From positions 240,132-304,131 of the forward strand of contig JAUNLW010000001.1 of the NCBI GenBank assembly GCA_030532065.1: a stretch of 64,000 bases of DNA, written 5' to 3'. Shown here piece by piece: positions 43,013 to 60,508 of this stretch. A program made the translations under genes and the position numbers. Position 1 is the stretch's first letter. Every line of letters begins with the position of its first letter. Origin of the DNA: Eubacteriales bacterium. Its GTDB lineage: Bacteria; Bacillota; Clostridia; Saccharofermentanales; DTU023. The notes beneath the pieces are model-generated. The model was not told the DNA's origin and searched no databases. It saw nothing but the letters and a program-made list of their open reading frames with translations.

Positions 43013-44332
43013 ATGGCTGTGGCTACCCAAAAAGTAAAAGTGCTCATAATAGGAGCTGGACCCAGTGGCTTGGCCGCTGCTATCGCGGCAGGTGAAGCCG
43101 GCCTCGCTCCGCAGGATTTGGTCGTGCTTGAAGCCCAGAATATTCCTGGCCGCAAGATCCTGGCTAGCGGCAATGGTCGTTGTAATTTAGGCAATTTAAG
43201 CCCACTTCCGGAAAACTATCACAGTAGCCGGCCGGAGCTTGCCGAACGTTTGCTTGAGAAACTAGCCAGCGCTTATTCGTTAGATTTTTGGCGCCGCGCC
43301 GGTATAGCAATCAAGGCAGATGAAGCCGGCCGACTCTATCCTCAATCCGAAGAGGCGGCTGCCGTGCAACGTATGCTACTTAGGCGTGTAAGTCATTTTG
43401 GCTTTACAGTCGAAATGGCCAAAGCCCTAAAGGCTATCGCGAGATCAGGCAAAGGCTATCTCGTAACCTGTAAAGATGACAGCAAGTGGGAAGCCGAGGC
43501 TGTAATACTGGCTCTCGGTGGACCAGGAGGTGCTGACTTGGGCGCAAACGCTAAGGCACAGGCTCTTTTTGATGGGCTTGGCCTGGACACAGTAGACCAG
43601 CGTCCGGCACTGACGCAGATATTACTGAAAGAAAATGCTTTTCTAAAGAGAGCACAAGGTAGTCGCTTCAAGGGCTCCGCGCAAATTGCTAGCAGCCGGA
43701 GCAAGGTTAGAGGCGAGTTCCTCTTTAGCCAACGTGCGCTGTCGGGTATTGCTGCGCTTGACTTGTCCAATCTCTTAGCAAATACGCAAGGCAGCTTTAA
43801 GGATAAAGCTGAAAACAGTGATTTTATCTTTTCTAAACCCCTTAGGCTGGAATTGGATTTTTTGACAGAATATACAGAGGCAGACTTACGCAAGTTCCTT
43901 GAGGCGAAGCAAGACAGCTTTCGCCAAGAGATAACTAAGAACTGGATCGAAGAGCAAAGCTGCCTATCGTATCTGCTTGACTCTCTGATCAACGCTAAAC
44001 AGGTTAAAGCCTATTTGCTGGCTGAGGGTAAAGGCAGGCTGTTAGATACTAAAGAAGTTTTTTCTAAAGCTCAATTGGCTAAGCTAGCCCATGCGCTTAA
44101 ACATTTTCCACTCACTGCCATCGGCCTTCGGTCCTATAAGTTCGCGCAGACAGCCAATGGTGGACTCAGTCTGTCAGAGCTTGACGAAAACCTACAAATA
44201 AAAAAATACCCCGGCCTCTTCGCAGTCGGGGAATGCCTGGATCTAACGGGAAACTGTGGTGGCTACAATCTTTACTTTGCCTTTGCGTCCGGTTATCTGG
44301 CCGGACAGACTGCTAAAGCTTATTTGAGTTGA
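43013..44332 (+). CDS. HI0933/BaiN-like FAD-dependent oxidoreductase
   Basis: It has the dinucleotide fold VLIIGAGPSGLAAA and the C-terminal block GECLDLTGNCGGYNLYFAFASGYLAG. Confidence 0.8.
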   Translation: MAVATQKVKVLIIGAGPSGLAAAIAAGEAGLAPQDLVVLEAQNIPGRKILASGNGRCNLGNLSPLPENYHSSRPELAERLLEKLASAYSLDFWRRAGIAIKADEAGRLYPQSEEAAAVQRMLLRRVSHFGFTVEMAKALKAIARSGKGYLVTCKDDSKWEAEAVILALGGPGGADLGANAKAQALFDGLGLDTVDQRPALTQILLKENAFLKRAQGSRFKGSAQIASSRSKVRGEFLFSQRALSGIAALDLSNLLANTQGSFKDKAENSDFIFSKPLRLELDFLTEYTEADLRKFLEAKQDSFRQEITKNWIEEQSCLSYLLDSLINAKQVKAYLLAEGKGRLLDTKEVFSKAQLAKLAHALKHFPLTAIGLRSYKFAQTANGGLSLSELDENLQIKKYPGLFAVGECLDLTGNCGGYNLYFAFASGYLAGQTAKAYLS

Positions 44333-46299
44333 CCTAACAGATCTCCGCATTTGACATAGAGCTCATAGAGATTCTCCAGACGCTGATGCTGGCGGGCAAA
44401 TTCCTCATAAATTTCGCTACCTTCTACCTGACCGAATTGGGTGCTCAGGTCAGAGGTGGAGTCTTCCAGAGCAGCAATCTCAACTTCTATATCTCTCACC
44501 GCTTCCGCCAGCTGGGCGCGCAATTGGCGCTCAGTACGGCGTTGATTAGAGCGAGGTGGAAGTTTAGCCAGTTGTGGTAAAAGAGCCAGTTCTTCTTTAG
44601 TAAAAAGACTTGCCCCTGACTCTTCTTGCTTAATGTTTTGCTTGCTACTTGTTTCTTTATCAACTTCTGACGTACCCGAGAGAGCTTGTTTAACTGCTCT
44701 ACGATAGGAATTATAACGTGGAAAAGGCCTAACTTCACGACCAACAAAACCATAGATCTGCTCGCCTATACGCTCGATAAAATAACGATCGTGGCTGACA
44801 GCTACGATTGTCCCCTGATAGCGTTCCAGGGCACTTTCCAGGATTTCAGAAGAAGAGATGTCCAAGTGGTTGGTAGGCTCATCCAGGAAAATCAAGTCCG
44901 GTTTCTGCAGCAGGATCTGGGCTAAAGCCAGACGGGATTTTTCACCACCAGACAGGCTGGCTACCGGCTTTTCCAGGTCTAATCCATAGAAGGAATAACC
45001 GGCCAGGTATTCGCGACCCTGGTTAGAGGTAAGTGTTTCCTCATAGGAGAGCAGACTCTCGATAACCGTAAGGGTCGGGTCTGGGAAACGCTGAGTCTGG
45101 TCCAGACTAGCATAGCGCAGGTTAGGAGAGAGGCTGATCTCTCCTTGTAAATAAGGGTTGCGCGCGGAGAGGGCCTTGAGCAAATTAGTCTTTCCACATC
45201 CGTTCGGCCCACAAAAAAGGATTTTATCGCCAGAATATATATCCAGATCTAATGGGTGAAAGAGTTCGTCTTCCGCGTCAGGAAATTGGATTGTCAGAGC
45301 GCGCGCTGAGATGAGCAATTTTTTGCTTTCCATACCGGCGGCTTCTTCCAGATAACGCAACTTAAATTTGGGGGAGACGCGAACGTTCTGTTCTTTAAGT
45401 TCCCGCAGACTATCGTTGAGCTTGGCTAACTTTTTTTGTCTACTGTGATAAGAAGCGATCTTGCGGTGAGAATATAAAGTTTGCACAACTTCTTCTTCGT
45501 GTTCGATTGCTTTCTCCAGTTTGCTTTGCTCGCGCTCGCGGCGCAGCTGTTCCTTAGCCTGTAATTCCTTGAAGGTAGAATAATTACCGCGGTAAAGCGT
45601 TAATTTACCGGTGTTCAACTCGCCGGTAAGATTACAAACCTGATCGAGAAAATGCCGGTCATGAGAGACCACAATCAAGGTGGATTTTAAAGAGGCCAGC
45701 TTTTCTTCCAGCCATTCAGAAGCTTCCAGATCCAGATGGTTGGTGGGCTCGTCCAGTAAGATCAAATCCGGTTCTTGTATCAATATAGTGGCTAAGGCCA
45801 ATCTCATACGTTCACCGCCGGATAAACTGGCTTTCTTCTGACCAATCTTAGCCGGATCCAGCCCCAGGCTGGCCGCGGCTTGCGCTAGACGATATGGATA
45901 GTCCCAGGCTCCTTTAGCTTCATATTTAGCCTGTAAATGAGCGTATTCATTTAATAACCGCTCGTCATTCGGATGCTCAGCCATGGCACGTTCCAGGGCC
46001 TGGCGCTTTTCATTTAAACGCTGGAATTCAGGATGATCCAGTGCGGTAAGTTGACCTTCATCAGCACGAAATTCCTGCTCCAGATAGGCAGGGATAACAC
46101 CGGCAGCCAAATGTATACGCGCTTCTTCGTTGTCTGCCTCTTCTTTTCCGCTGATCAGGCGCAGTAAAGTAGTCTTGCCTGAACCATTATGTCCGATCAG
46201 GCCAAGTTTGTCCCCGCGGTCCAAAGTAAAGCTCACATCTTTGAGCACGTTTTTGGAAAAATAGGATTTATTTAAATTTTCGACTGAGAGAATACTCAT
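44320..46299 (-). CDS. ABC-F family ATPase (tandem ABC domains, no TMD) with a C-terminal coiled coil
   Basis: Walker A motifs are GHNGSGKTT and GPNGCGKTN. Signature motifs are LSGGERMR and LSGGEKSR. It has a charged inter-domain linker, and its 3' end overlaps the convergent gene by 13 nt. Confidence 0.9.
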   Translation of the reverse strand: MSILSVENLNKSYFSKNVLKDVSFTLDRGDKLGLIGHNGSGKTTLLRLISGKEEADNEEARIHLAAGVIPAYLEQEFRADEGQLTALDHPEFQRLNEKRQALERAMAEHPNDERLLNEYAHLQAKYEAKGAWDYPYRLAQAAASLGLDPAKIGQKKASLSGGERMRLALATILIQEPDLILLDEPTNHLDLEASEWLEEKLASLKSTLIVVSHDRHFLDQVCNLTGELNTGKLTLYRGNYSTFKELQAKEQLRREREQSKLEKAIEHEEEVVQTLYSHRKIASYHSRQKKLAKLNDSLRELKEQNVRVSPKFKLRYLEEAAGMESKKLLISARALTIQFPDAEDELFHPLDLDIYSGDKILFCGPNGCGKTNLLKALSARNPYLQGEISLSPNLRYASLDQTQRFPDPTLTVIESLLSYEETLTSNQGREYLAGYSFYGLDLEKPVASLSGGEKSRLALAQILLQKPDLIFLDEPTNHLDISSSEILESALERYQGTIVAVSHDRYFIERIGEQIYGFVGREVRPFPRYNSYRRAVKQALSGTSEVDKETSSKQNIKQEESGASLFTKEELALLPQLAKLPPRSNQRRTERQLRAQLAEAVRDIEVEIAALEDSTSDLSTQFGQVEGSEIYEEFARQHQRLENLYELYVKCGDLLGQLK

Positions 46300-46410
46300 A
46301 GACTAATCATAGGGGATAAGAGACAGCTTGCAAAGGACTTTTTGTTTGCTATAAACTGGAATGAAATAAGCAGAAAGGATCTAATTCTCTTCGAGAATTG
46401 TCAGATAATT

Positions 46411-47043
46411 ATGATTAATGTTTTCCGAGGCCATAGGTATCCTAAAATTATTGTAGCTTTCTTATGCCTGGCTTTTTGCCTAACTACCGTAGCTTGCCAA
46501 GGCCTTTCTGAATTTGGCCTGTCAACCGATAAAACCGCGTCTGATGCAGACTCTACGGTCGAGAGTAAAGTCGCCTCATACACCGGCCCCACTGGAGCTG
46601 AACCCAGAAAAGATTCTGACTTTGGCCAACTAAGCCTGGAAGACCAGGACTTACTCTTAACTTGGATGGACAGCGTTAAGACTAGCTACCAGGCCTTAGC
46701 GTCAGAGTTGTCTGATTTTTCAGGTCAACTGCCTGAGCTAAAGGCGGAAATGCAGGAAAAAGCCAAGCTGGCAGAGTCGGAGATTTTCCAAAATTTCAAG
46801 AATAAGTGCCAGGAAGAGCTTGACAAATTAAAAGCTTATGCCGAGGAGAAACTTCCCGAGGGAGCAGATAAGATCAAGGAGCAGGTCAATAAGCTCAACG
46901 GTCTTTACCAGGACTTTTTAGACAGACTGAGCCAGGCTGACAGCAAGGCAGATGATTTCTCCGATCAGCTGCAGGAAGATGTAAACAAGCTGATTAGCGG
47001 CTTACAGGATGTTCTGGATGCTTTCTTTGATTTCAAGTCCTAG
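46411..47043 (+). CDS. Putative lipoprotein with a helical, coiled-coil-like ectodomain
   Basis: The signal peptide KIIVAFLCLAFCLTTVAC has an imperfect lipobox. The remainder is E/K/D/L/Q-rich helical repeats. Confidence 0.45.
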   Translation: MINVFRGHRYPKIIVAFLCLAFCLTTVACQGLSEFGLSTDKTASDADSTVESKVASYTGPTGAEPRKDSDFGQLSLEDQDLLLTWMDSVKTSYQALASELSDFSGQLPELKAEMQEKAKLAESEIFQNFKNKCQEELDKLKAYAEEKLPEGADKIKEQVNKLNGLYQDFLDRLSQADSKADDFSDQLQEDVNKLISGLQDVLDAFFDFKS

Positions 47044-47071
47044 TACTTCAAGTGAAACAGCGCACATTTTT

Positions 47072-47103
47072 AAAAGGCGGGTCTTTGGAGGATCCGCCTT
47101 TTT
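47072..47103. terminator. Bidirectional terminator between the lipoprotein gene and the response regulator gene
   Basis: AAAAGGCGGGTC-TTTGGAG-GATCCGCCTTTT. Confidence 0.75.
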
Positions 47104-47141
47104 GCATACAAGCAAAGATAATTTATGGAAAAACTCGTTCT

Positions 47142-47756
47142 CTATATTTGTTCTGGTACGATATAGCCCTTGGAAACCGCGAAGATCGCCAGTTGGGCAA
47201 TACTGGAATAGCCGGTCTTGGCCAGGATACGGTTGATATTATTGCGCACGGTATTTTCAGAGAGAAAGAGTGCTTCGGAAATCTCCTTACGGCTTAAGCC
47301 TTTGCAGACCAGGCGGAGAATATCCATCTCGCGCTCAGTCAGGTCCAGTTCGACCGCGCTGCTGCTCTCTTCTTCAGGAAAGGTATGGTAGTCATGCATT
47401 GTGCTCTGGATGCTTTTCAGCAACTGCTCTCTACCTACATTTTTGTAAACGAAGCTATCAGCCCCAGCTTCTTTGGCAGCGGTGACAAAAGACATATCAG
47501 GCATACCGGTCATAAGAATAACTTTGATTTGCGGGAAGCGTTCTTTGATCCGCTTAGCTTCCACGATGCCGGATTGACCCTCATCGTTGCAGATATCCAT
47601 GAGTACCAGATCGGGTTTATAGAATTCACAAAGGTCCACTACCTCGCCTGCGTAGGTAGATTTAGCCACGATCTCAATCTCATCGGACAAACTAAGTGAG
47701 TCTGCCAGTGAGTCTAGAAGGATCTGCTGGTCTTCTATCAGAATTAATCGTATCAT
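47142..47756 (-). CDS. NarL/LuxR-family response regulator (REC + HTH_LuxR)
   Basis: The REC domain has DLVLMDI and KVILMTG. The HTH is LSRKEISEALFLSENTVRNNINRILAK. Confidence 0.92.
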   Translation of the reverse strand: MIRLILIEDQQILLDSLADSLSLSDEIEIVAKSTYAGEVVDLCEFYKPDLVLMDICNDEGQSGIVEAKRIKERFPQIKVILMTGMPDMSFVTAAKEAGADSFVYKNVGREQLLKSIQSTMHDYHTFPEEESSSAVELDLTEREMDILRLVCKGLSRKEISEALFLSENTVRNNINRILAKTGYSSIAQLAIFAVSKGYIVPEQI

Positions 47757-47931
47757 TTATTACTCGTCCTTCCTCTTGCTGTCACTTACAGCTTAGTAGA
47801 CACTGATTTAATCCTTAATGAATCTATATTATAACACAGGCCATTTAGGTATCCGAAAAACAGGAATGTGAGCCTTCTGTAACTTCCTCAAGAGGAGATA
47901 GCTTATAATAAGAAAAATCGGAGGAAGCAAT

Positions 47932-50667
47932 TTGCGGAGTCAGAAATTAAGACATCTAAGAATGACCAGTGCAGAGCAAACCACTGCTGGCCGCCTTAAG
48001 AGACTGCTGGTTGCTTGTTTGCTGTGCCTGTCGTTGCTTAGCATATTTGACGGTGTGCCTACTACTGTGGCAGCCTCTACCGGCATGGGTATAGAGGAGC
48101 CAGACCTGGCTCTGGAAGCTCCCATCTATTATTTTGATTATCCCGGTTCCCTCTTTTCCAATGCAGTTTTGGGAAATTTTCCTTTTTCCTATATTGAGCG
48201 CTTGAAGAGCGAGACTTCGGTGCACCAGGAAGAACTGGCGGACAGTCTCATGCTCTTACCGGAAAATCGCGCTCATACGCTGCGGGCTAATGCGGCTAAT
48301 CAGAGCGAGGTAGCCTTTGAGCCTATATATGAGGCCAGCCTGGTAATTGCCTACGATAGTGAACGGATCAGGCATGATCTTAGAAGTTGGAAAGATCTTC
48401 TGATCGTTGCCAAAGCTGGTGAGTTACCAGAATTAGGGGTGCTGCTGGAACCGGAGTATGTCCTGGCCAGCGCGGCGCTGTATCTGGATCAGTCGGAAGA
48501 CGCGGAATTGATAAGGACGCTGGCAGAATTAAACGACCAGGGCAAACTGAAGCTTTTTAGAGGCTCAGATGCAAATTCAGGCTGGCCAGTTTCTTTGATC
48601 TCTGGTGGACTGGAGACCAGAGAATTACCGGCAGTATTATTACTATGGGATTATCAAGCGGCTCAGATCAACCGTAAGCTGGGCAGCAACTCCTATACTT
48701 TCCACTTACCTTATGAAGGCAGCTTAAGTCTGTCTTTCGGCCTTTACGCCAATGGAAGAAAGGCAAAGAATACACTGGAAAGCCGTTTACAGGAAGAAAC
48801 AAGGTTAAGTCTGGCAGAAAACTTCATCGCTTTTGGCTATCGCATGGCAGACGGAAGCTCACCTCGTACACTTAAAGCATTTTCCAATCCGCTTCTGGGT
48901 GATGAAGTTTCTACTTATGGCTATCCGGAGCCGGACGAGTATCGTGCCCCGGCCATGACCTACCGGGATTATGGAGACTTGAACCAGATCTTCCTTAGCT
49001 CTACGGCAAAACTCAGGCGTGATGTGCTGGGGAAGAGTGTTATCTTACCGGCTACACCTGAAGAAGAGCACGTGCTTCTAGTGTTACTGATCCCAATTTT
49101 TCTGATCTGGGCAGCTACCATCTTCTTCCGCATCGACGATGTGGCGATCAGGCGCTCTATTACCTTGCTTTCGCTCTGGTTCTCCTTGGCTATTATCCTC
49201 TTCTTTGTGCAGACCATGTACGCTAACAGCGCCCGGAACGATATCATCTATTACATTCGCTTCCTGCCTTTTGTTGGCATGATCGAATCCTGGTTCTACA
49301 CAGGTTTTAGTCTGGCTCGCAGCCAGGGACTGATCAAGGAAAGACACCGTCGTCTGCCATTGCTTTGCAGCATGATCTTTTACGCTCTGGGTGTTGCCTT
49401 TGTGCTCAATGACCTGCACGGCTATGCCTTTACCCTGAGCCCCTTCATGCGTATCCAAAAACTGGGTCCCCTGGGCTATCTACTGCTTTTGGCTATCTTA
49501 GGACTCTGGCTGGCAGGATTTTTCTTGCTGCTCAAATGTCAGGCCAAAATCTATACCTCCACCTGGGTCTTCCCGTTGGCAGCTTTTGTTGCGCTGTGCG
49601 CGCTAAACATCTATCTGTTTATCAGTGATGGCAGTTTGCGCTCCACCAGCTTTGATCTGCTCAATCTGGTTGGTATAGCAGTGATCTTGGAACTTAGTCT
49701 GCAAACACGCTTGATCCCAGCCAATTCGGGTTATATCAAGCTTTTCCGCTACAGTAATGTTGGCCTGCGCCTGATCAACGAAGACCGCTCAGAAGTTTAT
49801 CCACCAGAAAGAGACAACATTCCCTCGGCCTCTGCGGCCTTGATCAACGAAGCCATAGAGCAGGATCTAGCCTCCAGGCCGGAGAACTCAGGCGTGGGCG
49901 TGGCTGTACCCAGTGCGGAGCAAGAGGGCCTTATTTACCATACTTCCAAAATCAATGGTGGCTATCTGATTTGGGAGGAAGATATATCAGATGTTTTAAA
50001 ACTCAAGCATGAGCTGACCTATCTTATGGAACGCCTGGAGCAACAGGGCAGAATTTTGGCTCGTAGACGTAATATTCGCGGTCAATACCTGTCTATGAAA
50101 ATTCGCCGAGAAATGATGCAACGTCTTGAATCCAGTCTCTCAACGCAGCTGCAAGAGATAAGAAAGAGCCTGCGCGAGATAGAAGCTTCTGAAGACAAGA
50201 ACTTTGTCCGTCAGGAACTGGGACGCGTCAAGATCATGGTCTCTCAGTGTAAGCGCAAAAGTAATCTCCTGGTTAGAGCGGAGGCTGAGATCCAGGCAGA
50301 AGAAGTCTCGCTTATTTTTAACGAAGCTTTGCAGGATGCCGGCACGGCGGACATAAGCGGCTTAGTGCTGGTACAAGGCTCAGTGCCCTTAGCAACCGAT
50401 ATTCTGCTGGCTCTCTATGACTATGTCATGTACCTGCTAGCTAAAGCAGTGGGTTTAAACTCCACCAGCCTTTTCCTGAACTTGCGCTGGGACCAGGAAA
50501 AACTGACTTTACAGATTATCTTCAGCTCGGCTGAGCCCAGCCCCGAAAGTTTTTTCCAGCCGGGATCAGATCTTCTGCCGGAACTCCGGCGCCTTAAACT
50601 TGACTTACACATAGAGGTCGATGGCAATGACTGCAATATCCGCATTGTGAGAGAGGAGGGAAAATAG
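47932..50667 (+). CDS. Large membrane sensor-like protein: solute-binding-protein-like ectodomain, ~7 TM helices, coiled coil, and a degenerate (His-less) HisKA_3/HATPase-like module
   Basis: TTG 47932 lies 6 nt after GGAGGA. There is a signal/TM segment, then a ~330-aa domain with a PBP-like pattern (SLVIAYDSERIRHDLRSWKDLL). The TM block spans residues ~385-620. The C-terminal part aligns by eye to the downstream kinase, but IRREMMQRL replaces IHDVMGQRL and there are no N/G boxes. Confidence 0.6.
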   Translation: MRSQKLRHLRMTSAEQTTAGRLKRLLVACLLCLSLLSIFDGVPTTVAASTGMGIEEPDLALEAPIYYFDYPGSLFSNAVLGNFPFSYIERLKSETSVHQEELADSLMLLPENRAHTLRANAANQSEVAFEPIYEASLVIAYDSERIRHDLRSWKDLLIVAKAGELPELGVLLEPEYVLASAALYLDQSEDAELIRTLAELNDQGKLKLFRGSDANSGWPVSLISGGLETRELPAVLLLWDYQAAQINRKLGSNSYTFHLPYEGSLSLSFGLYANGRKAKNTLESRLQEETRLSLAENFIAFGYRMADGSSPRTLKAFSNPLLGDEVSTYGYPEPDEYRAPAMTYRDYGDLNQIFLSSTAKLRRDVLGKSVILPATPEEEHVLLVLLIPIFLIWAATIFFRIDDVAIRRSITLLSLWFSLAIILFFVQTMYANSARNDIIYYIRFLPFVGMIESWFYTGFSLARSQGLIKERHRRLPLLCSMIFYALGVAFVLNDLHGYAFTLSPFMRIQKLGPLGYLLLLAILGLWLAGFFLLLKCQAKIYTSTWVFPLAAFVALCALNIYLFISDGSLRSTSFDLLNLVGIAVILELSLQTRLIPANSGYIKLFRYSNVGLRLINEDRSEVYPPERDNIPSASAALINEAIEQDLASRPENSGVGVAVPSAEQEGLIYHTSKINGGYLIWEEDISDVLKLKHELTYLMERLEQQGRILARRRNIRGQYLSMKIRREMMQRLESSLSTQLQEIRKSLREIEASEDKNFVRQELGRVKIMVSQCKRKSNLLVRAEAEIQAEEVSLIFNEALQDAGTADISGLVLVQGSVPLATDILLALYDYVMYLLAKAVGLNSTSLFLNLRWDQEKLTLQIIFSSAEPSPESFFQPGSDLLPELRRLKLDLHIEVDGNDCNIRIVREEGK

Positions 50668-52236
50668 ATGTTGTACTTTTATGAGATCCCCCAAACCTTG
50701 CGCATGGCTTTGCAGATCTTTCTCCTGGCCGGTATCGCCAGTCAAATGGTACTAATGCTTATGTACTCCTTCTTCCGCAGGGGTCGTCAATATATTCTCA
50801 ATTTCTTCTTAGAGTTGGGAATCCTGTATTTCTTTATCATGCTTAACCTGTCATTGGGCTTTATCCAGTTAACTGAGCCGAAAAACCTGATCGTCTACCC
50901 TTATGCGGAATGGCGCAATCTAGGTATGCTAGCGCCCATTTTGGGTATGCCGGTGTTGATGAATCAACATCGACAAAGCGACCTGATTGCCATTCTCTGC
51001 CTGATTTTTACCTTGCCCTTTATGGAGGCTCTGGCTGGGGTCTGGTATGTCAATCTCTGTGCGTTTTTTACGGCCATTCTGCTGATTCGTTCCGCCTATG
51101 AGCTCAAGCAGAATCTCTCACATCTCAAACAAAACATTACTCGCTTTTCCATGAAACAGGCTTTTGACACCTTCCCGGAAGGCCTGGCCATAGGCCGCCA
51201 ACACGGAAGTCTTATTTTTACCAACGCCAAAATGCGTCAGCTGATGGCAGACAAAGGACTGGCGCAGGATAAGAGAACTTCTGGCCTGCGCGTAGCCTTT
51301 CGCCGCATGTTGAAAGAAGAAGAACTCGCGGCAAAACAGGCTGATGCCAGTTCGCTTACGCTTACACGCATCTCTTTGGAACAAGAGATAAGGCAGAAGA
51401 ATGAGCAGGAAGCGAAGAATAACCGCAGCTCCAGGCGTCGTGCGCATGACAGTGACGCTACGGAACCGGTACCCAACCTGCGCAGCTTTGAGAGCGGCGG
51501 GCACATATACCGTTACCAGGAAAGCAGCTTACAAGTTGGACATAAGACTTACTGGGAGGTCTTGATTAGCGATATCAGTGAGGAAAGTCACCTCATCCAG
51601 GAAATCCAGGAAAAAAACCAGGATCTGGCACAAAACAATCAACAGCTGGGCATGATGCTGCAAAATATTGAAGAGATCGAACTGGAAAAAGAAACTCGCC
51701 GTATGCGTAATCGTATCCATGATGTTATGGGACAGCGCTTATCCATCCTGCATTCCAGTCTGCAACAAATGGATCGGAGGGAAGAAGTACCTCTGACCGA
51801 TCTTTTAGACCTCCTAGAAGATATGATGGATGACCTGCAGGAAGGTGAGAAATTTGATAGTGAGCAGATATTCCACAATGTTCAAAATACGGCCGATATT
51901 GTAGGTACTAAATTAGTCAAACAGGGTGACATACCGTCTAACGAAGAAATAGCTACTGTTTTTCTGCAAATTTTGAGAGAAGCCGTAACTAACGCGATAC
52001 GCCACGGTCAGGCAGACGAAGTCTTAGCTAAATTCTATGAAGATGAGGAAAACTATTATATGGATATCAGCAACAGTGGCCGCCTGCCAGATCAGATCGT
52101 ACAGGAAGGCGAAGGTATCAGCGGTATGCGCCATAAACTAGCCGGCCTGGCCGGTCACCTGGAGATCGAGACCCGTGATACCTTTACCATCAAGGTGCGT
52201 GTGCCACATTTCGATAACTTGCCGGTAAAACCCTAA
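50668..52236 (+). CDS. Sensor histidine kinase, HisKA_3 (NarX/LiaS/DegS) type, with a 5-TM N-terminal domain
   Basis: The H-box is RNRIHDVMGQRLS (His351, nt 51718-20), the N-box is REAVTNAIRHG, and the G-box region is EGEGISGMRHKL. Its ATG abuts the upstream stop (TAGATG), and its SD GAGGAGGG lies inside the upstream gene. Confidence 0.85.
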   Translation: MLYFYEIPQTLRMALQIFLLAGIASQMVLMLMYSFFRRGRQYILNFFLELGILYFFIMLNLSLGFIQLTEPKNLIVYPYAEWRNLGMLAPILGMPVLMNQHRQSDLIAILCLIFTLPFMEALAGVWYVNLCAFFTAILLIRSAYELKQNLSHLKQNITRFSMKQAFDTFPEGLAIGRQHGSLIFTNAKMRQLMADKGLAQDKRTSGLRVAFRRMLKEEELAAKQADASSLTLTRISLEQEIRQKNEQEAKNNRSSRRRAHDSDATEPVPNLRSFESGGHIYRYQESSLQVGHKTYWEVLISDISEESHLIQEIQEKNQDLAQNNQQLGMMLQNIEEIELEKETRRMRNRIHDVMGQRLSILHSSLQQMDRREEVPLTDLLDLLEDMMDDLQEGEKFDSEQIFHNVQNTADIVGTKLVKQGDIPSNEEIATVFLQILREAVTNAIRHGQADEVLAKFYEDEENYYMDISNSGRLPDQIVQEGEGISGMRHKLAGLAGHLEIETRDTFTIKVRVPHFDNLPVKP

Positions 52237-52346
52237 AATGTCGTAAAATCAGGACTTTTGACGAACTTCTACATTATTTACCTAGCTCTTACTTGCGAGA
52301 ATTAAGAACGTCTTAGAGCGACACTAAATTCTCAAGGAGGAGCTTT

Positions 52347-54416
52347 ATGTTTAGAAGTCTTGATCAGCAGAACCTAAAAAATATTCCCATTCTGCTAAAA
52401 AGCCTAAGCCTGATTATACTGCTTATGCTTTTATGTTACCTGCCCCAAGAAGTAGAGGCCTTGACCATCCGTCACGAACCAGTACGAAATGAAAAATTTT
52501 TTGTCCGTGTCAATATGCCTGATTACGTTGAAGAGAAAGGACCGGGTTCTTACTCTGAACGAGTTGCCAGTTTCTATCTCAACTCCCACTATCCGACCCA
52601 ATACCCGAGTTTAACCTGCTTTTGCATCGAACCTTTCATTGCTATAGACGCAGGTGAGGTGACCTACAACAGTCAGGATCTTGCCTCATACCTTCAGGAA
52701 TATTACGGTTATTCACCGGACGCTGCTCAGAGAAAGGCACGCGACCTGGCAGAGGTAAGTTACTTTGCTCTGGGTGCCATACCTGCCTCGCAGCGTACTT
52801 TAGAAGATCAATTCACCTGTCAGTTACTTTTGTGGGAAGAGTTGGGTTATGAAGTTCATTTGGCCGACCCCTACTGGTATAAGCTTGGTAAAGAAAAAAT
52901 GCGTCAGCGTCGCGGGGAATACTACCAAAGACACAGCCTAGAGGGTGAGACCATTGAGTTGGAACCAGGCGGCCAACTTAGCCTCCAGGACAGCGGTTGG
53001 GCAAATCTACTGCCGGCAGCTGGATTTAGTCCCGGAAATCCAAAGGCACTTGACGAAGAAGGTCAACTCAGCCTTACCTGGAACGGAGCGGATCAGGTGG
53101 TGCTGGAAGCCTCGCGTGATTTTCAAACCGATACCAATGTGAGCATAGTAGCTGGATCATCTAACCACAATGTAGGGGCCTATGTTGCCGCCAGCAGCCA
53201 ATCCGTAGTAGAAGTTTGCAGCAGGGCTCCGCTCAAGCAACTAAACTTCAGCGTCGTATCCAAAGAAGCTCCCAGCTCCAGCTTTAAATTACAAAAGATG
53301 GCAGAGCAGATTGTAAGCTGGGAAGAGGTTGACAAGATACGGGTAAATGAAAAAGAAGAGTCAGTTTACCGTCCCTTAAGAGAAGTCAGACCGTTGGCCG
53401 GTGTCAACTTTAGTCTCACACTAAAGGAAGAATTATGGTTTAAGGGTGAGCACTATGAGCCAGATGATTTAGTGTATGAATTTACTACTGATGCGAATGG
53501 CGAGGCAATACTGGAAGAGATACCCTGCGGTAATTATCTGCTCACTGAAGAAAGCCAGGACCTTAACTATTTACCTTTGAATTCCATCAGCATTGAGATT
53601 GTTCCGGATGAAATATCCGTAGATGAAGCAGAACCATATATTGTCAACAATGAACGACGTGCCTTTGCTTTTAGCGCCATCAAGCAGCTGGAAGGAGCTA
53701 AGGATCTTAGCTACGACGAGGTGTCATCTGTCTTGCGGGAACTGAAGTTCGTGCTGCGTACCCAAGAAGACTTACCGGGTCTGGAAGAGAAATTACCTGC
53801 CGGTAGTTTGGTAGCCTGTTCGTCACTGGAGCCTTTGGAGCCATTGCTGCCACAGGCAGATCCGGCACAGGGCCAGAGCGAGTCAGAAGATGGAAACACC
53901 CTTGCTTCAAGTGATCAGCAGGAAGTGCTGAGTTTTGCTGATATGTTCCCGGCTAAAGATATCCTGAGAAAGATCAGTTTCGACTTACCTTGTTTAGCAA
54001 CGTTTAGTCTGGAGGAAGTAAATCCTGGCAACATCTACCAAAGACTGGAACCCATAGAATTAGACTTCAAAAACTTCTCAGAGCCTGAAGTTGACGCTTG
54101 GGGAGGTTATCGTTACACGCTGATGGCTCCTTTAGTAAATAAGCTGGTCCCACCGGAAGAAGTAGTGGAAGATCCCCAACCAGTTACACCGGCCCCCATA
54201 CCTGTAGAGGAGCCCGAAGCTACAGATCCACCAGTAGTTTATTTCCCCACTAATCTGGAGCAAACCATACTGCCAACGCAAAATGTAGAGGCGCCTGATT
54301 TTCTCACGCAGGTTAAGAATCTGCCGGCTACCGGTTCCGCTGAGTCCAATAAATTGGCTGCCATAGGTCTGGCTCTGGGAACTCTTATCCTTTCCGGCAT
54401 AAACAAAATTAATTAA
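52347..54416 (+). CDS. LPXTG-anchored surface protein with a thioester-domain-like N-terminal region and CnaB/SpaA-type fold domain(s)
   Basis: It has a signal peptide, a FCIE motif (Cys93, nt 52623-25) and a CQLLLW motif (Gln159, nt 52821-23). A prealbumin-like block reads GVNFSLTL...TTDANGEAILEEIPCGNYLLTEE. A Pro-rich stalk is followed by LPATG plus a TM helix plus a short tail. Confidence 0.7.
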   Translation: MFRSLDQQNLKNIPILLKSLSLIILLMLLCYLPQEVEALTIRHEPVRNEKFFVRVNMPDYVEEKGPGSYSERVASFYLNSHYPTQYPSLTCFCIEPFIAIDAGEVTYNSQDLASYLQEYYGYSPDAAQRKARDLAEVSYFALGAIPASQRTLEDQFTCQLLLWEELGYEVHLADPYWYKLGKEKMRQRRGEYYQRHSLEGETIELEPGGQLSLQDSGWANLLPAAGFSPGNPKALDEEGQLSLTWNGADQVVLEASRDFQTDTNVSIVAGSSNHNVGAYVAASSQSVVEVCSRAPLKQLNFSVVSKEAPSSSFKLQKMAEQIVSWEEVDKIRVNEKEESVYRPLREVRPLAGVNFSLTLKEELWFKGEHYEPDDLVYEFTTDANGEAILEEIPCGNYLLTEESQDLNYLPLNSISIEIVPDEISVDEAEPYIVNNERRAFAFSAIKQLEGAKDLSYDEVSSVLRELKFVLRTQEDLPGLEEKLPAGSLVACSSLEPLEPLLPQADPAQGQSESEDGNTLASSDQQEVLSFADMFPAKDILRKISFDLPCLATFSLEEVNPGNIYQRLEPIELDFKNFSEPEVDAWGGYRYTLMAPLVNKLVPPEEVVEDPQPVTPAPIPVEEPEATDPPVVYFPTNLEQTILPTQNVEAPDFLTQVKNLPATGSAESNKLAAIGLALGTLILSGINKIN

Positions 54417-54441
54417 GCCATAACTGAGGCCATGTCCACGC

Positions 54442-54475
54442 TACCCCTGTTCAGCAGAGCAGGGGTATCTTTGTT
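54442..54475 (+). terminator. Terminator after the surface-protein gene
   Basis: TACCCCTG...CAGGGGTA is followed by TCTTTGTT. Confidence 0.6.
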
Positions 54476-54548
54476 GGCTAAAGGTCAACCGCCTAGTTCT
54501 ATGTTATAATCTGGAAATGCAGTCCCTCCAGGAGGATTAGGCCACGGT

Positions 54549-55247
54549 ATGCCAGGCTTTGATTTACAATACGTTCTTATTTCCATACTGGTTTTAACAG
54601 TTTCGCTGTCTACGCACGAGTACGCTCATGCCCGGATGGCCATGGCTTTGGGTGATGATACGGCAGAAAAGTCCGGTCGTCTGACCTTAAATCCCTTAGC
54701 CCATTTGGAACTTTTAGGCACTTTAGCTTTCCTGCTCTTACGCATCGGCTGGGCTAAGCCTGTGCCAGTGAATCCCTCCAAACTGGAAAAAGCTAAGGAC
54801 GCTGAGCATGGCATGATGTTGGTTAGTATTGCTGGGCCTTTGTCTAATCTCTTGGTAGCTTTTATCGCGGCCTTCTTGTATAACCTGACCCGGGTGTTAG
54901 GTTATTTCCTGCTGCAAAGGCCTAATATCAATGTAGACACCACTGTTTTTGTTCTCAATATTTTCGTTACTATATTTTTGGCTTTCTACTATTCCAATGT
55001 CAGCCTGGCTATTTTTAACTTGATTCCCCTGCCTCCACTGGACGGATCTAAGATCCTGGCTTTCTTCTTGCCATCTAAGGCCAGCTACTATATGTACAAA
55101 TATCAGCGTTACATCAGTTTTGCCATGATCTTGCTCTTTATCTTTGCCGGCTCTTATATTGCCAAGTTTATGTCGATGGTTTCTAAACCCTTCTACTATG
55201 TTTTGATGCGCCCTTGGGAGATTCTGGCCAACGTCATTATTAATTAA
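54549..55247 (+). CDS. Site-2 protease family (M50) zinc metalloprotease
   Basis: It has HEYAHA (HExxH) in TM1 and NLIPLPPLDG (NxxPxxxLDG), and it is a polytopic protein. Confidence 0.82.
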   Translation: MPGFDLQYVLISILVLTVSLSTHEYAHARMAMALGDDTAEKSGRLTLNPLAHLELLGTLAFLLLRIGWAKPVPVNPSKLEKAKDAEHGMMLVSIAGPLSNLLVAFIAAFLYNLTRVLGYFLLQRPNINVDTTVFVLNIFVTIFLAFYYSNVSLAIFNLIPLPPLDGSKILAFFLPSKASYYMYKYQRYISFAMILLFIFAGSYIAKFMSMVSKPFYYVLMRPWEILANVIIN

Positions 55248-55270
55248 AGACGAGGAAAATGGGGGCTTAG

Positions 55271-56029
55271 ATGGAAACAATTGATCAAATCGAGATCAAA
55301 GCCTATGACAGTCCACTGGAACTATTAGACCAGCTGATCCGTGTAAGAAAAGCGGACCTTTTTGACCTGCCGATCGCGGAACTTTGCAGGCACTACCTGG
55401 AAATTCTGGAAGAGTCTTCACGCCAGGGCCTGGATATGAATCTGGCCAGCGAGTTTATTGTCATGGCGGCAACCTTGATGGAAATAAAGACCCGGATGCT
55501 TTTGCCTGAAGCGCTGGAGAGCACAGGTGGTGAAGATGATCCGCGCAGGGATTTGGTACTTCAGCTTATGGCTTATCGCAGGATGAAGGCGCTGGCGACA
55601 GATCTGGAAGAGCGTTACCAACGATTTGGACCGGTACCGGAGCGAGCTAGCTTAAAACCTTCTGATCTGGGACTTCCGGATCAGAAGGTGGGAGCGAGCA
55701 CAGACTTGGATCCGGAGCGACTCTGGCAGTCGGCTGAACGGATCAGCAGCCAGAATGAGGAACGCTATAATCCTCAGTCACGCACCATCCGGCGCCTGCT
55801 TAAGCGAGAGCAATGGTCAGTTAAAGATAAAATAAAAGAGATCTGGCGGCGCTTCAAAAGCAGCAGCAAGTTCCTTTTCAGCGAACTTTTTGCCAGCAAG
55901 AACCCGTCCAAGGGTGAGCGAATCAGCACTTTCCTGGCAATTTTGGAGATGGCGCAGCAACATGAATTGAAGGTCGAACAAAAGCAAGCTTTTGGAGAGA
56001 TCAGCTTGGAGAAGTACGATGGAGACTAA
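55271..56029 (+). CDS. scpA: Segregation and condensation protein A
   Basis: SPLELLDQLIRVRKADLFDLPIAEL is a typical ScpA N-terminus, and the gene is followed by scpB. Confidence 0.88.
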   Translation: METIDQIEIKAYDSPLELLDQLIRVRKADLFDLPIAELCRHYLEILEESSRQGLDMNLASEFIVMAATLMEIKTRMLLPEALESTGGEDDPRRDLVLQLMAYRRMKALATDLEERYQRFGPVPERASLKPSDLGLPDQKVGASTDLDPERLWQSAERISSQNEERYNPQSRTIRRLLKREQWSVKDKIKEIWRRFKSSSKFLFSELFASKNPSKGERISTFLAILEMAQQHELKVEQKQAFGEISLEKYDGD

Positions 56030-57250: not shown

Positions 57251-57965
57251 GCCTCTGCCAGCTGTCTTACGCCAGTACCACCTGGGCTGGCAAATGGTTT
57301 TCCGCCCGGTCTGGGGTTTGGGGCAGCTGCTGTTTCGCCCGCGATATCAGGGACTTGACCTGCTGCCTAAAGAAGGGCCTTATATCCTGGCGGGTAATCA
57401 TCAGAGTAACTTTGACGTGATTCTGGTCCATGCCGCCATGCCTCAAGCGGTGCGTTGGGTGGCCAAAGCAGAACTTTTTAATACACCCCTGATATCTCAC
57501 GCGGCGCGCACCTTGGAAGCCATTCCTTTAGATCGTTCTCGCGCGGATATAGCCGCGGTGAAGTCGATCCGTTCAAGTTTAAAAGAAGGCAGGGTAGTGG
57601 GTATATTTCCTCAGGCTACGCGGGTAAAGGAAAAAGATTTAGCAAATAAGCTGCCGCCCGATTCAGTTATCCGTCTTCTGGCTCGCTCCAAAGTGCCGAT
57701 CCTTCCCTTTGCCATCCAAGTGCCACTTAAACCATTCCGCAAGACGCAAGTGGTTTTTGGTCGGCCCTTTTATTTAGCGCCTGAGGCAGCAAAAAAACCG
57801 AAAGAAGCCAAACACTATTTAATGGCAAAAATATTCCAGCTGCTTGACAGGCCACCGGACTTGCCCTTGGAGGAGTGGCTTGCCGGAGGGTGTGATTTGG
57901 AGCTTATAAGTGAAAATAAACGTTCGACAGACATTATTGACAGAGAAAAAGAAGGTGAGAGTTGA
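57246..57965 (+). CDS. plsC: 1-acyl-sn-glycerol-3-phosphate acyltransferase
   Basis: It has the HX4D motif NHQSNFD and the FPQATR block. ATG 57246 overlaps the cmk stop. Confidence 0.82.
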   Translation, partial: CRPLPAVLRQYHLGWQMVFRPVWGLGQLLFRPRYQGLDLLPKEGPYILAGNHQSNFDVILVHAAMPQAVRWVAKAELFNTPLISHAARTLEAIPLDRSRADIAAVKSIRSSLKEGRVVGIFPQATRVKEKDLANKLPPDSVIRLLARSKVPILPFAIQVPLKPFRKTQVVFGRPFYLAPEAAKKPKEAKHYLMAKIFQLLDRPPDLPLEEWLAGGCDLELISENKRSTDIIDREKEGES

Positions 57966-57970
57966 CAACC

Positions 57971-60508
57971 ATGAATAACGCATGGAAAAGAGTGACAGAT
58001 TGCAATTTGGATATAAAAATCGCAGAGTCGGCCGGCTTTTGCCCCGGCGTCAAGCGGGCAGTGGACCAGGCTTGGGAGCTGACGAAGATTAAAGATCTGC
58101 CGCTTTATATGTACGGAGAAATTGTCCATAATGAGCAAGTGGTCCAGGAATTGCTGGACCAAGGGTTTCAGCTGGCGCACAGTCCAGAAGAAGTAAGCGC
58201 TCCAGGTATTTGCCTGATTCGGGCTCATGGAATACGTATTGAAGAAGAACTGGCTCTAATAGAAAAAGGCGTGGAGCTGGTTGACTGTACCTGTGGTTGG
58301 GTCAAGCGCCTACATGAGCTGGCTACTAGCTGCAAAGAAGAGGGCGATTGTCTAATCCTCTGTGGTGACCCTAAGCACCCGGAGATGCAGGGAATTTTAT
58401 CTCGGGCGAGTAAAGATACGCTGGTAATAGACAGCCTGGAGCAGGCAGAAGCTATATCCGATGAAGGAAAATCTTATATTTTAGCTGCGCAAACCACTTT
58501 TCCCGCGGTAATATTCAAAAAAATCACAAAAAGCTTGCAAACAAGCCTGTCCAAGTTAAAAATATTTGATACAATATGCTTTACAACTGCAAGAAGGCAA
58601 GAAGAAGCCCGGCTTATCGCTGAGAGTTCTGACTTAGTGTTGGTCTTGGGAGGAGCGCATAGTTCCAATACCAATAAATTGCTGAGCATCTGCCGCCAGG
58701 CTTGTAGTGAAACATATTTAATTCAACGGCCGGACCAAGTCCTCGCCATTGCTGAAGGCAGGGACTTGCGACAGATGCGAATCGGAATAACAGCAGGAGC
58801 GTCAACACCGGAACGTATGATCAGGGAGGTTACTTACGTAATGACAGAAAATCAAGACTTCAGCGCAGTAAAAGATGAAGAAAAAACTGTAGCAGCTGAA
58901 AGCCAAGAAGTGGCTGAGGAGCTCAGCACTGAGCCTCTGAAAACAGAGGAAACCGGTATTGACACAGCAGAGCAAGCTAAGCATGAAACCGCCGCGCCGG
59001 CAGGGAAAAAAGATGACGAAGAAGAATTCAGTTTCTCCGACTATATTGAAGGCATTCCCCAACTGAAGCGTGGCGCTGTTGTTAAGGGCACCATCGTTCG
59101 TTACGATGACGAGTACGTCTATGTGGACGTTAAAGACAAGTCCGAAGGCAAGGTGCCCCGTCACGAGTTCGTGGATGATCCTGACTTTGACTTAGATAAA
59201 GCTATCGCTAACCATGAGCAAGTAGAAGTTTATGTCCGCCACATCAAGAATACTGATATGGGCAAGGAAATTTCTCTGTCCAAGGCCAGAGTAGACTTCG
59301 AGCGCCACAAAGAAGTTATCCGCAAGGCTTTTGAAGAGCAAACTCCTATTGCCTGCAAAGTTACCAATATCGTTAAAGACGGTGTTATTGCCAGTTATGG
59401 CAGTGTAGATCTCTACATCCACCGTACTCAACTGGAACTCAGAGCCGTGGAAGATCTGGAACCCTATCGTGGCCAGACCTTAGAAGTTTTAGTTACCCAA
59501 TTTGACCCCTACCGCAGAAGACTCAGAGTCAGCGGTTCTCGCCGCGCTTTATTACAAGCTGAGCGCGCCGAAAAAGCTAAAGAACTGTGGGCCAACATTG
59601 AAGTCGGTAAAGAGTATGAGGGTGTTGTACGCAGCCTGACCTCTTTCGGTGCCTTCGTGGACATTGGTGGTGTAGATGGCTTAGTACACGTTTCCGAACT
59701 TTCCTGGAAACGCATCAAGCATCCTTCAGAAGTCGTACAGGTTGGCGATCATCTCAAGGTATTCGTACTGGATTACGAGCAGGAAAAAGACCGTATTTCT
59801 CTGGGCTACAGAAGACCGGAAAACGATCCTTACTACAATATTGAAGAGCGCTTCCCTCAGGGAAGTATTGTTCGCGGTATCGTAGTACGCATGTTCCCCT
59901 TTGGCGCATTCGTAGAGATCGCCCCCGGCGTAGATGCCCTTTGCCACGTGTCTCAAATCTCTACCTACCATCTGAATCATCCTGAAGATGTACTCCAGGT
60001 AGGTATGGAAGTAGATGCAAGAGTGCTTTCCGTAAGTGATAAGGAACGCAAGATCTCTATCAGCATCAAAGATGTAGAGCCTATCGATCCTGCAAATCCT
60101 GAGGATTTCATTCAGCACAAGCCTCGCGAAAACCGTGGCCGTGACGAAGATAACTCCGAGCGCCCTCGCAGAGAGAGACGTTCTCGTCAGGACAACCGCG
60201 ATCGCAATCGTGACCGTTCCGGCACTAACTATGTAGACTCCACCGGTGGATCTTCCCTGGCTTCCTTAGCTAACGTGACAGTTTCCAGTGAAGCCGGTGC
60301 CGAACTGGTAGAAGCTCTGAGAGAGCAAGAAGAAGCTGCTGAAGCCAAAGCTAAGGAAGAAGCTGAAGCCAAGAAGGCTGAGGAGATCGCTGCTCGCAAG
60401 GCAGCAGAAGCAGAAGCCAAGGCTAAAGCCGAAGCAGAAGAAGCTGCTCAAGCTGCAGAGGCTGAGGCAACTGAAGAACAGGCTGAAGAAGCCCAACCTG
60501 AAGCCTAA
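57971..60508 (+). CDS. ispH: Bifunctional 4-hydroxy-3-methylbut-2-enyl diphosphate reductase (IspH) / 30S ribosomal protein S1 fusion, with an Ala/Glu/Lys-rich tail
   Basis: The three IspH cysteine blocks are GFCPGVKRAV, DCTCGWVKRLH and DTICFTTARRQ. Four S1 repeats follow (e.g. GVVRSLTSFGAFVDIGGVDGLVHVSELS). The last ~90 aa are an EAKA-type low-complexity tail. Confidence 0.9.
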   Translation: MNNAWKRVTDCNLDIKIAESAGFCPGVKRAVDQAWELTKIKDLPLYMYGEIVHNEQVVQELLDQGFQLAHSPEEVSAPGICLIRAHGIRIEEELALIEKGVELVDCTCGWVKRLHELATSCKEEGDCLILCGDPKHPEMQGILSRASKDTLVIDSLEQAEAISDEGKSYILAAQTTFPAVIFKKITKSLQTSLSKLKIFDTICFTTARRQEEARLIAESSDLVLVLGGAHSSNTNKLLSICRQACSETYLIQRPDQVLAIAEGRDLRQMRIGITAGASTPERMIREVTYVMTENQDFSAVKDEEKTVAAESQEVAEELSTEPLKTEETGIDTAEQAKHETAAPAGKKDDEEEFSFSDYIEGIPQLKRGAVVKGTIVRYDDEYVYVDVKDKSEGKVPRHEFVDDPDFDLDKAIANHEQVEVYVRHIKNTDMGKEISLSKARVDFERHKEVIRKAFEEQTPIACKVTNIVKDGVIASYGSVDLYIHRTQLELRAVEDLEPYRGQTLEVLVTQFDPYRRRLRVSGSRRALLQAERAEKAKELWANIEVGKEYEGVVRSLTSFGAFVDIGGVDGLVHVSELSWKRIKHPSEVVQVGDHLKVFVLDYEQEKDRISLGYRRPENDPYYNIEERFPQGSIVRGIVVRMFPFGAFVEIAPGVDALCHVSQISTYHLNHPEDVLQVGMEVDARVLSVSDKERKISISIKDVEPIDPANPEDFIQHKPRENRGRDEDNSERPRRERRSRQDNRDRNRDRSGTNYVDSTGGSSLASLANVTVSSEAGAELVEALREQEEAAEAKAKEEAEAKKAEEIAARKAAEAEAKAKAEAEEAAQAAEAEATEEQAEEAQPEA

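Follow-up and report, generated by a model that had tools for sequence, protein, structure and literature searches.

A 64,000-nt stretch of contig JAUNLW010000001.1 (assembly GCA_030532065.1), from a bacterium of the Eubacteriales, forms the window analysed here, and all positions are counted from its first letter. Within it, a response regulator (RR) gene, the gene of a 911-aa membrane protein, a sensor kinase gene, and the gene of an LPXTG-anchored adhesin form one compact block. It is probable that the first three encode a signalling cassette in which a catalytically dead kinase acts as the sensor for a live kinase and its regulator, with the adhesin as the likeliest local target. A preliminary description of this DNA had proposed such a core of a His-less pseudo-kinase, a HisKA_3 kinase, and a NarL-type regulator, and both the anatomy of the predicted proteins and the conserved order of their genes strongly support it. 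Judged by sequence, the trio recurs widely, as an unnamed cassette, in gut and environmental Clostridia. The family was not described in the literature searched (HisKA_7TM, pseudo-histidine kinases, three-component systems), which, together with the database searches, agrees with the earlier remark that this is not a named system.

The RR gene lies on the minus strand (47142-47756, 204 aa), divergent from three plus-strand genes. These are the pseudo-histidine kinase gene (47932-50667, 911 aa), which starts at a TTG codon with GGAGG 7 nt upstream, the HisKA_3-type sensor kinase gene (50668-52236, 522 aa), and the gene of the LPXTG-anchored surface protein (52347-54416, 689 aa). The four open reading frames (ORFs), the TAG-ATG junction with its internal Shine-Dalgarno (SD) sequence, the 110-nt spacer, and both flanking terminators were all found again where they had first been placed. 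At the junction of the pseudo-kinase and kinase genes (50652-50670, plus strand), which has the form of a translational-coupling site, the SD sequence GAGGAGGG sits in the upstream gene and the TAG stop codon directly abuts the ATG. The junction letters are ...GAGAGGAGGGAAAATAGATG, with GAGAGGAGGGAAAATAG and then ATG read at the boundary itself. An identical NCBI copy of the 911-aa protein (P0001, 'hypothetical protein', from an Eubacteriales metagenome-assembled genome, MAG) is annotated 10 codons shorter, at 901 aa. The sequence comparison supports the long form, because the long N-terminus is also present in a homologue of 85% identity.

The 911-aa protein has no match in Pfam or NCBIfam, its cytoplasmic module is without a model in either, and no match to a well-known family of another function was found in Pfam, NCBIfam, or the databases searched. 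Its relatives are nevertheless numerous. A word-indexed protein search alone gave eight homologues, while an exhaustive profile search returned 1,277 representatives of 50%-identity clusters at E≤1e-3, 571 of them at E≤1e-10. About 19 are full-length proteins of ~900 aa, many are of ~800 aa with a solute-binding protein (SBP) domain, a seven-helix transmembrane (TM) block, and the C-terminal module, and many are of ~500–600 aa with only the last two. Database names for the family are limited to 'hypothetical' or '(histidine kinase N-terminal) 7TM domain-containing protein'.

Loss of the catalytic residues was read first against the neighbouring kinase. In a BLASTP alignment the last 260 residues of the 911-aa protein align with it (E 0.01), placing E733 opposite His351, Y834/K838/L842 opposite the N-box residues E438/N442/H446, and unconserved sequence opposite the G-boxes. 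Columns counted over the 155 best family members follow the same pattern. The phospho-His column holds E in 107, D in 22, and H in one, so that an acidic residue stands there in 129/155; the N-box Asn column is W/K/A/Q/T, and no G-boxes are present, the lid/G-box region being gappy and unconserved. The claim that the sensor protein lacks the His thus holds for the protein and for its family as a whole. On these alignments the 911-aa protein and its relatives have lost both the phospho-acceptor His and the ATP-binding residues. In their place stand family-specific features, namely a K774-R775-(R/K)-x-N-L motif (K774 in 153/155, R775 in 144/155), E798, Y829-D830, and a GGYxxWxxDIS motif.

An AlphaFold2 (AF2) model of the protein, built from a seven-sequence alignment, has a mean predicted local distance difference test (pLDDT) score of 60, with ~60–85 in the ectodomain, 70–89 in the C-terminal third, and poor values in the TM block. 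In order, it contains an N-terminal hydrophobic anchor, the ectodomain, seven helices, a small alpha/beta domain, a long coiled coil, a two-helix hairpin, and an alpha/beta sandwich. Because there is one N-terminal anchor followed by seven TM helices, the SBP-like domain is placed outside the cell and the kinase-like part inside. The SBP-like ectodomain (aa ~60–310; 48109-48861, plus strand) is predicted from Foldseek, a PDB profile, and the Pfam matches of relatives. Foldseek matched this part of the model (pLDDT about 60–85) to the class II SBPs 5t1p, MotA, FbpA/HitA, and PotD in the PDB (E 1e-7 to 1e-5, TM-score 0.4–0.5). 5t1p is also touched by the sequence profile of the protein (E 0.08), and distant relatives score at or slightly under the cut-off for SBP_bac_6 (24.3 vs 24.6 bits). 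The seven-helix block of HisKA_7TM type (aa 376–593; 49057-49710, plus strand) is drawn from the AF2 helices and hydropathy peaks. Three relatives exceed the HisKA_7TM (PF16927) cut-off of 28.6 bits: P0035 at 37.1, P0021 at 33.5, and P0032 at 30.3.

A small cytoplasmic alpha/beta domain follows (aa 613–684; 49768-49983, plus strand), assigned from AF2 secondary structure, with the GGYxxWxxDIS motif at its end. G676/G677 and the DIS residues are nearly invariant in the family, and the motif falls opposite YWEVLISDIS when the partner kinase is aligned. Beyond the coiled coil lies a hairpin resembling a dimerisation and histidine phosphotransfer (DHp) domain (aa 722–782; 50095-50277, plus strand), with helices at 722–752 and 756–782, E733 at the place of the phospho-His, and the KR(R/K)xNL motif ending helix 2. 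The last domain (aa 789–907; 50296-50652, plus strand) resembles a degenerate catalytic and ATP-binding (CA) domain without the N-box Asn or G-boxes. Foldseek matches of the C-terminal part in the PDB are histidine kinases (WalK, YF1 4gcz, DesK 7ssj/5iuj, and DivL 4q20; E 1e-7 to 1e-5), and the modelled protein accordingly shows a histidine-kinase-like DHp plus CA fold. Compared profile against profile, the pseudo-kinase and kinase families match weakly (hhalign P 0.005), and for this reason the claim is limited to a common fold and a common W..DIS motif and does not extend to paralogy.

The 522-aa partner has the motifs of a live kinase. Hydropathy indicates 4–5 N-terminal TM helices and no ectodomain, followed by a linker with YWEVLISDIS, a coiled coil, the H-box RIHDVMGQRL, which includes the DxxxQ phosphatase motif, the N-box EAVTNAIRHG, and the G2 box GEGISGM. 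All the catalytic motifs (H-box, N-box, and G-boxes) are kept, in agreement with the first assignment of this protein to the HisKA_3 kinases. His351 is encoded at 51718-51720. H351, D352, G355, E438, N442, H446, G471, and G483 are invariant in seven near and distant partner kinases, including ones only 21–29% identical. As the Pfam HATPase_c match is sub-threshold (19.6 vs 26.4 bits), the kinase call rests on these motifs and on NCBIfam, which aligns the C-terminus to UhpB/NarQ/NarX. The regulator passes both Pfam cut-offs of its type, with 63.2 bits for Response_reg and 54 bits for GerE, and its description as NarL-type is upheld. E8/D9, the phospho-acceptor D54, T83, and K104 can be read in its receiver. 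It aligns full-length to NarL, MctR, and MadR in NCBIfam, all under the equivalog cut-offs, and its orthologues score 291–350 bits.

Gene linkage was surveyed at two evolutionary distances. Eight proteins from the word-indexed search and six loci from a scan of 185,579 species genomes gave a near family, of which 10 loci were assessed; the loci found by the scan all belong to uncultured Clostridia or Oscillospiraceae MAGs. All ten keep the RR, pseudo-kinase, and kinase wherever the sequence allows. Each locus with enough sequence also shows the same block, consisting of a 233-aa gene (plus), RR (minus), pseudo-kinase (plus), kinase (plus), and adhesin (plus). Nearly all share a wider neighbourhood too, from ABC-F to M50, scpA, scpB, cmk, and plsC, and because the whole chromosomal neighbourhood is shared, synteny in the near family shows little by itself. 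The exceptions are locus L002, which has a differing downstream flank, and L010, in which a 325-aa acyltransferase-like ORF lies between kinase and adhesin. The pseudo-kinase orthologue of L010 (L010:40-2783) is split in two overlapping ORFs (266 + 691 aa), which points to a frameshift, an error of assembly, or pseudogene status.

The distant set is more informative, as its flanking genes are unrelated between clusters. A metagenome scan yielded at least 503 relatives of the pseudo-kinase, many from human gut assemblies; four contigs, picked for their length, and 80 metagenomic loci were taken into a set of 85 loci, which group into 27 clusters at a threshold of 60% identity and into 15 at 40%. 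A kinase gene immediately downstream was scored in 70/73 distant loci with room for one, and in 73/73 after inspection. The three loci that had appeared to lack a kinase were rejected as true exceptions, being artefacts of ORF calling in which kinase and regulator are visible. A kinase together with a regulator of receiver (REC) plus GerE type was scored in 61/65 loci with room, rising to 64/65 once these three were corrected. In the remaining miss, L080, the kinase is frameshifted and the RR-like ORF lies just beyond the distance window. As a rule, the stop of the pseudo-kinase gene and the start of the kinase gene overlap or abut, with a 4-nt overlap (gap −3) in 26 distant loci and abutment (gap 0) in seven, and the junction in this genome follows that pattern. 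In the distant family the regulator lies 3' of the kinase on the same strand, and a divergent upstream RR is peculiar to the near clade. The pseudo-kinase thus adjoins this kinase family and a REC+GerE regulator in the 10 near loci, and the kinase in 73/73 distant ones, which bears out the synteny on which the preliminary description had made its proposal depend.

Input domains vary across this conserved core. The SBP is fused in members of ~800–900 aa and absent from those of ~550 aa. In the largest SBP-less group (26 loci; e.g. L075:9407-12458), the regulator is followed by a separate SBP_bac_8 gene and by the gene of a 533-aa protein with a C-terminal LuxR helix-turn-helix. This group resembles a split version of the fused SBP-pseudo-kinase architecture. 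Gene content of both forms fits an SBP that works with the 7-TM pseudo-kinase in cis or in trans.

In the mechanism we propose, the 911-aa protein would be a catalytically dead, paralogue-like relative of sensor kinases that serves as the extracytoplasmic input module. Its SBP-like Venus-flytrap ectodomain, seated on the 7-TM bundle, would bind a small extracellular ligand, and the bundle would be wired to a PAS-like domain, the DHp-like hairpin, and the dead CA-like domain. SBP_bac_6-like proteins bind iron, polyamines, opines, and similar compounds, a range that yields no specific prediction of the ligand. Translational coupling may fix the proportion of the 911-aa protein to the 522-aa kinase. 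The pseudo-kinase would then bind the kinase in the membrane and/or via the DHp-like helices and shift its balance between kinase and phosphatase activity. The kinase would in turn set the phosphorylation of Asp54 on the NarL-type RR and thereby control transcription. In this clade the likeliest local target would be the adjacent LPATG-anchored, probably thioester-forming adhesin, and the divergent promoters of the cassette itself may be a further one.

The adhesin has the expected features of a Gram-positive surface protein. Hydrophobic segments lie at aa 13–31 and 670–688, corresponding to a signal peptide and C-terminal tail, and the LPATG motif at aa 659–663 (54321-54335) belongs to an LPxTG that is invariant in orthologues, so the original LPXTG assignment stands. 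The Gram_pos_anchor match is weak (16.2 bits), a Pfam SpaA domain is matched at aa 348–421 (27.1 bits; 53388-53609), and no sortase gene was found within the locus. The word-indexed search gave 15 homologues. In an alignment of seven orthologues, 21–30% identical, F92-C93-x-x-P96 and Q159 are invariant, with the codon of Cys93 at 52623-52625 and that of Gln159 at 52821-52823. The motifs read FCIEP and TCQLLLWE with 66-aa spacing, and both the motifs and a spacing of 58–66 aa match proteins from that search that are positive for the Pfam thioester domain (TED; P0179, YCLEP...ATQILIWE; P0187, YCIEP...ATQTVIWE). The 689-aa protein itself has no match to TED (PF08341), and 3/7 orthologues match below threshold (best E 0.011). 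With hhalign, a 97% probability against TED was reached only with the SpaA domain included; the N-terminus alone gave E ~1e-3 and 16–24%. A two-sequence AF2 model (pLDDT 35) gave no usable fold. From the sequence motifs the N-terminus is probably a thioester domain. The earlier term 'covalent-adhesin-like' is therefore plausible in view of the invariant Cys and Gln, while the sub-threshold or weak TED matches fall short of confirming it. In its motif pattern (YC[IL]EP-like Cys, ATQxxIWE-like Gln, the same spacing), SpaA domain, and LPXTG anchor, the protein is like TED/TIE LPXTG adhesins with SpaA stalks; it differs in staying under the Pfam TED threshold, its thioester being predicted from sequence.

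Several points count against the reading as a whole. The 911-aa protein itself is below the Pfam thresholds for SBP_bac_6 and HisKA_7TM (no match to PF16927 at E≤0.01). Its sequence homology to the kinase is weak by both BLASTP and hhalign, so the kinase-like fold relies on an AF2 model of medium confidence. From the arrangement of domains and genes we infer the contact between pseudo-kinase and kinase, the direction of control, a ligand, and the regulon. The other points concern the adhesin. Its link to the cassette is seen only in the near clade and is largely confounded by the conservation of the neighbourhood from ABC-F to plsC; the 325-aa ORF of L010 intervenes between kinase and adhesin, and a terminator-like hairpin lies 3' of the kinase gene in L001, L007, and L008. 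K-mer counts over orthologues found no operator motif common to the RR/pseudo-kinase and kinase/adhesin spacers; what recurred was limited to −10-like boxes, SD sequences, and, within the adhesin spacers alone, a GACAAA/TTTGTC repeat. Lastly, the genes downstream of distant cassettes are heterogeneous and include Band_7_1 plus zinc-ribbon pairs, DUF6935, and SBP genes.

These last observations are also what favours the best-surviving alternative, in which the cassette is real but the adhesin is a mere neighbour with its own promoter, and the RR acts elsewhere, for example on its own gene or on the 233-aa secreted protein. Kinase-adhesin spacers ranging from 110 to 311 nt among orthologues fit this alternative as well. 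Against it, L002 retains the adhesin with the cassette despite its different downstream flank. The 110-nt spacer of this genome (52237-52346, plus strand), which ends in the SD sequence AAGGAGG, holds no terminator by site scan, and its fold is no better than shuffled sequence (z −1.2). Large surface-protein genes also follow distant cassettes co-directionally in five subfamilies, encoding an SLH/Shr-like protein (1,817 aa), a beta-helix protein (708 aa), two Big_2 + Flg_new_2 proteins (1,351 and 813 aa), and a protein with dockerin (1,024 aa). We give the mere-neighbour explanation slightly less than an even chance, and the adhesin as an output of the cassette is roughly an even call. The preliminary description had called it the obvious output, which the comparison supports weakly. 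Its retention in the near clade stands in favour of that claim, which is weakened by the neighbourhood shared throughout that clade and by the varied downstream genes of distant cassettes.

The spacers between kinase and adhesin contain further repeats. In L001:12350-12520, L007:5318-5485, and L008:7048-7210 there is a nested inverted repeat, CGACAAA...TGGC-TAAT-GCCA...TTTGTCG, followed by a T-run in L001, and a second repeat, TTTGTC-N4-GACAAA, lies just 5' of the SD sequence. A terminator function is possible for the first repeat, or an operator function for the two together. This genome has only a weak AU-rich version of the inverted repeat (52240-52264). Among the genes that recur after distant cassettes are those of a 162-aa DUF6935 protein (L011:11680-12165 and L014:13748-14233) and of Band_7_1 (SPFH) plus zinc-ribbon proteins, the latter in three unrelated loci (L014:10698-13393, L015:10998-13863, and L037:10581-13238). 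Both are possible alternative regulon members with a membrane/envelope theme.

The proposed cassette could take a stronger form, in which pseudo-kinase and kinase together make an obligate heteromeric 'split' histidine kinase. The non-catalytic paralogue, with its SBP and 7-TM parts, would be the ligand-sensing subunit, the acidic residue at the His position would act as a phospho-mimic, and the KRRxNL surface would lock onto the catalytic subunit. Such pairs would constitute a separate and widespread class in Clostridia and the gut microbiome, often governing large surface proteins or adhesins in response to extracellular small molecules. We regard this extension as speculative, with perhaps one chance in four of being correct.

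The remaining alternatives differ over what the 911-aa protein does. It might act on the RR instead of the kinase, as a phosphatase-like or sequestering partner for which the acidic residue and KRRxNL form a docking site on the DHp-like hairpin. In histidine kinases the RR usually docks on helix 1 of the DHp domain, and the hairpin is the best-conserved part of the family, as the counts for K774, R775, and E/D at position 733 demonstrate. However, the coupling is with the kinase and not the regulator, and in the near clade the RR gene has changed strand, with pseudo-kinase and kinase left joined. The HisKA_3 phosphatase motif DxxxQ is moreover found in the kinase and is absent from the pseudo-kinase. 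Together these points make an RR-directed role improbable. Less probable again is a 911-aa protein that is independent of the two-component pair, such as a 7-TM receptor or a transport-related protein, and is merely co-transcribed. Such independence would suit a cytoplasmic domain without a Pfam or NCBIfam model and a partnership that we ourselves infer, but it does not sit well with a kinase adjacent in every one of the 73 loci over 15–27 divergent clusters with unrelated flanks, with the stop/start overlap, or with the kinase-like fold predicted by the model. That the protein is an active kinase with a non-canonical acceptor or nucleotide site is hardly credible, for although E798, Y829, and D830 are conserved in the CA-like domain, the N-box Asn and the G1/G2 glycine boxes are missing, the lid is gappy and unconserved, and His occupies the acceptor position in a single member of 155.

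Outside the coding regions, the divergent intergenic region (47757-47931) is presumed, by eye and from k-mer counts, to hold the promoters of both units that flank it, the RR gene and the pseudo-kinase/kinase operon. A putative extended −10 for the RR gene, TGTTATAAT-like on the minus strand (ATTATAACA on the plus strand), occurs in 8/8 orthologous divergent spacers, and a putative TATAAT on the plus strand for the operon recurs in most of them. Promoter-like matches in the region are at chance level in a consensus scan (11 found vs 11.6 expected), and consensus scans for promoters and terminators were overall no better than chance. Between the 233-aa gene and the RR gene, a strong intrinsic terminator (47072-47103) is predicted on both strands (−20.7 kcal/mol, z −4.6 on plus; −14.8 kcal/mol, z −3.0 on minus); as the hairpin folds on either strand and has A and T runs on both sides, it is taken to be bidirectional. 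A second intrinsic terminator closes the block (54442-54467, plus strand), with an 11-bp stem of which six pairs are GC, then TCTTTGTT, and a minimum free energy of −19.6 kcal/mol. An Rfam scan of 45000-56000 gave no relevant match. The GC content of the block (0.44–0.50) is the same as that of its flanks, and hence there is no sign of recent horizontal transfer.

Upstream of the RR gene, the 233-aa gene (46342-47043, plus strand) encodes a secreted or lipoprotein-like helical-repeat protein with a hydrophobic signal segment at aa 36–54 and only weak ApoLp-III and xenorhabdolysin-A-like matches. An orthologue lies directly upstream of the RR gene in 8/8 near-family loci with room, including L002, and the protein may belong to the near-clade module as a fifth member or be one of its targets. 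Further out, an HI0933-like flavoprotein gene (43013-44332, plus strand) and an ABC-F ATPase gene (44320-46299, minus strand) converge with a 13-nt overlap, an arrangement that is kept in related MAGs. The ABC-F coding region also contains a match below the Rfam threshold, to RAGATH-25 (45210-45285, plus strand; 20 bits vs 49 gathering, E 0.39), which is most likely due to chance. An 848-aa ORF (57962-60508, plus strand) combines IspH/LytB, S1 RNA-binding repeats, and a low-complexity acidic tail, and the same LYTB + S1 product is found in L001.

Among known systems, the pair RocA-CovS in group A Streptococcus is by analogy the nearest functional precedent. RocA, a pseudokinase with six TM helices, interacts with CovS and depends on both the kinase and the phosphatase activity of its partner (PMC7028121). 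Like the 911-aa protein, beside which it is set here by description, it is a multi-TM protein of a Firmicute (Streptococcus pyogenes) with a DHp and a degenerate CA domain; it requires no autophosphorylation of its own and modulates phosphorylation of the RR, CovR (PMC7028121). RocA differs in keeping its His (H246, which is dispensable), in having six TM helices and no SBP ectodomain, and in lying outside the covRS operon, and its partner system is OmpR-type. DivL-CckA of Caulobacter and RetS-GacS of Pseudomonas likewise comprise a kinase-like protein that controls a true kinase by contact and not by phosphotransfer, and DivL has a substitution at the His position as the 911-aa protein does (PMC12189002). 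In DivL the substitution is to Tyr and not Glu/Asp. Both systems are proteobacterial, cytoplasmic PAS-rich or hybrid kinases, with neither translational coupling to the partner nor SBP/7-TM input.

Other systems share parts of the cassette. An SBP fold serves as ligand input, with clustered genes, in the SBP-dependent kinases TorT-TorS, LuxP-LuxQ, the XylFII-LytS/YesN 'three-component system', and CuaD-CuaSR (PMC8050422, PMC10384115). There, a free or lipid-anchored SBP docks on the kinase's own periplasmic domain, whereas this cassette has its SBP fold within a 7-TM pseudo-kinase, by fusion, and a true kinase that is without an ectodomain. LiaFSR and DesK-type systems, which have intramembrane-sensing kinases, also combine a multi-TM HisKA_3 kinase that lacks an ectodomain with a NarL-type regulator, and their operon encodes a further membrane protein (PMC7191749). 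However, LiaF is not kinase-like, no homology to LiaF was seen, and DesK senses alone. No system in this comparison has an SBP-fused 7-TM pseudo-kinase that its operon obligatorily couples to a HisKA_3 kinase and a NarL-type regulator.

Knowledge of accessory pseudo-kinases comes from a few single cases, namely RocA, DivL, and RetS. Here the pairing is built into the operon and conserved over a large family, which would offer natural material for comparative study of the control of a live kinase by a dead one. Comparing members with a fused SBP and members without one could reveal how such a pair gains new inputs. The assignment would annotate an abundant orphan family in gut Clostridia and, in the clade of this genome, would tie an extracellular cue to the expression of a probable covalent (thioester) adhesin.

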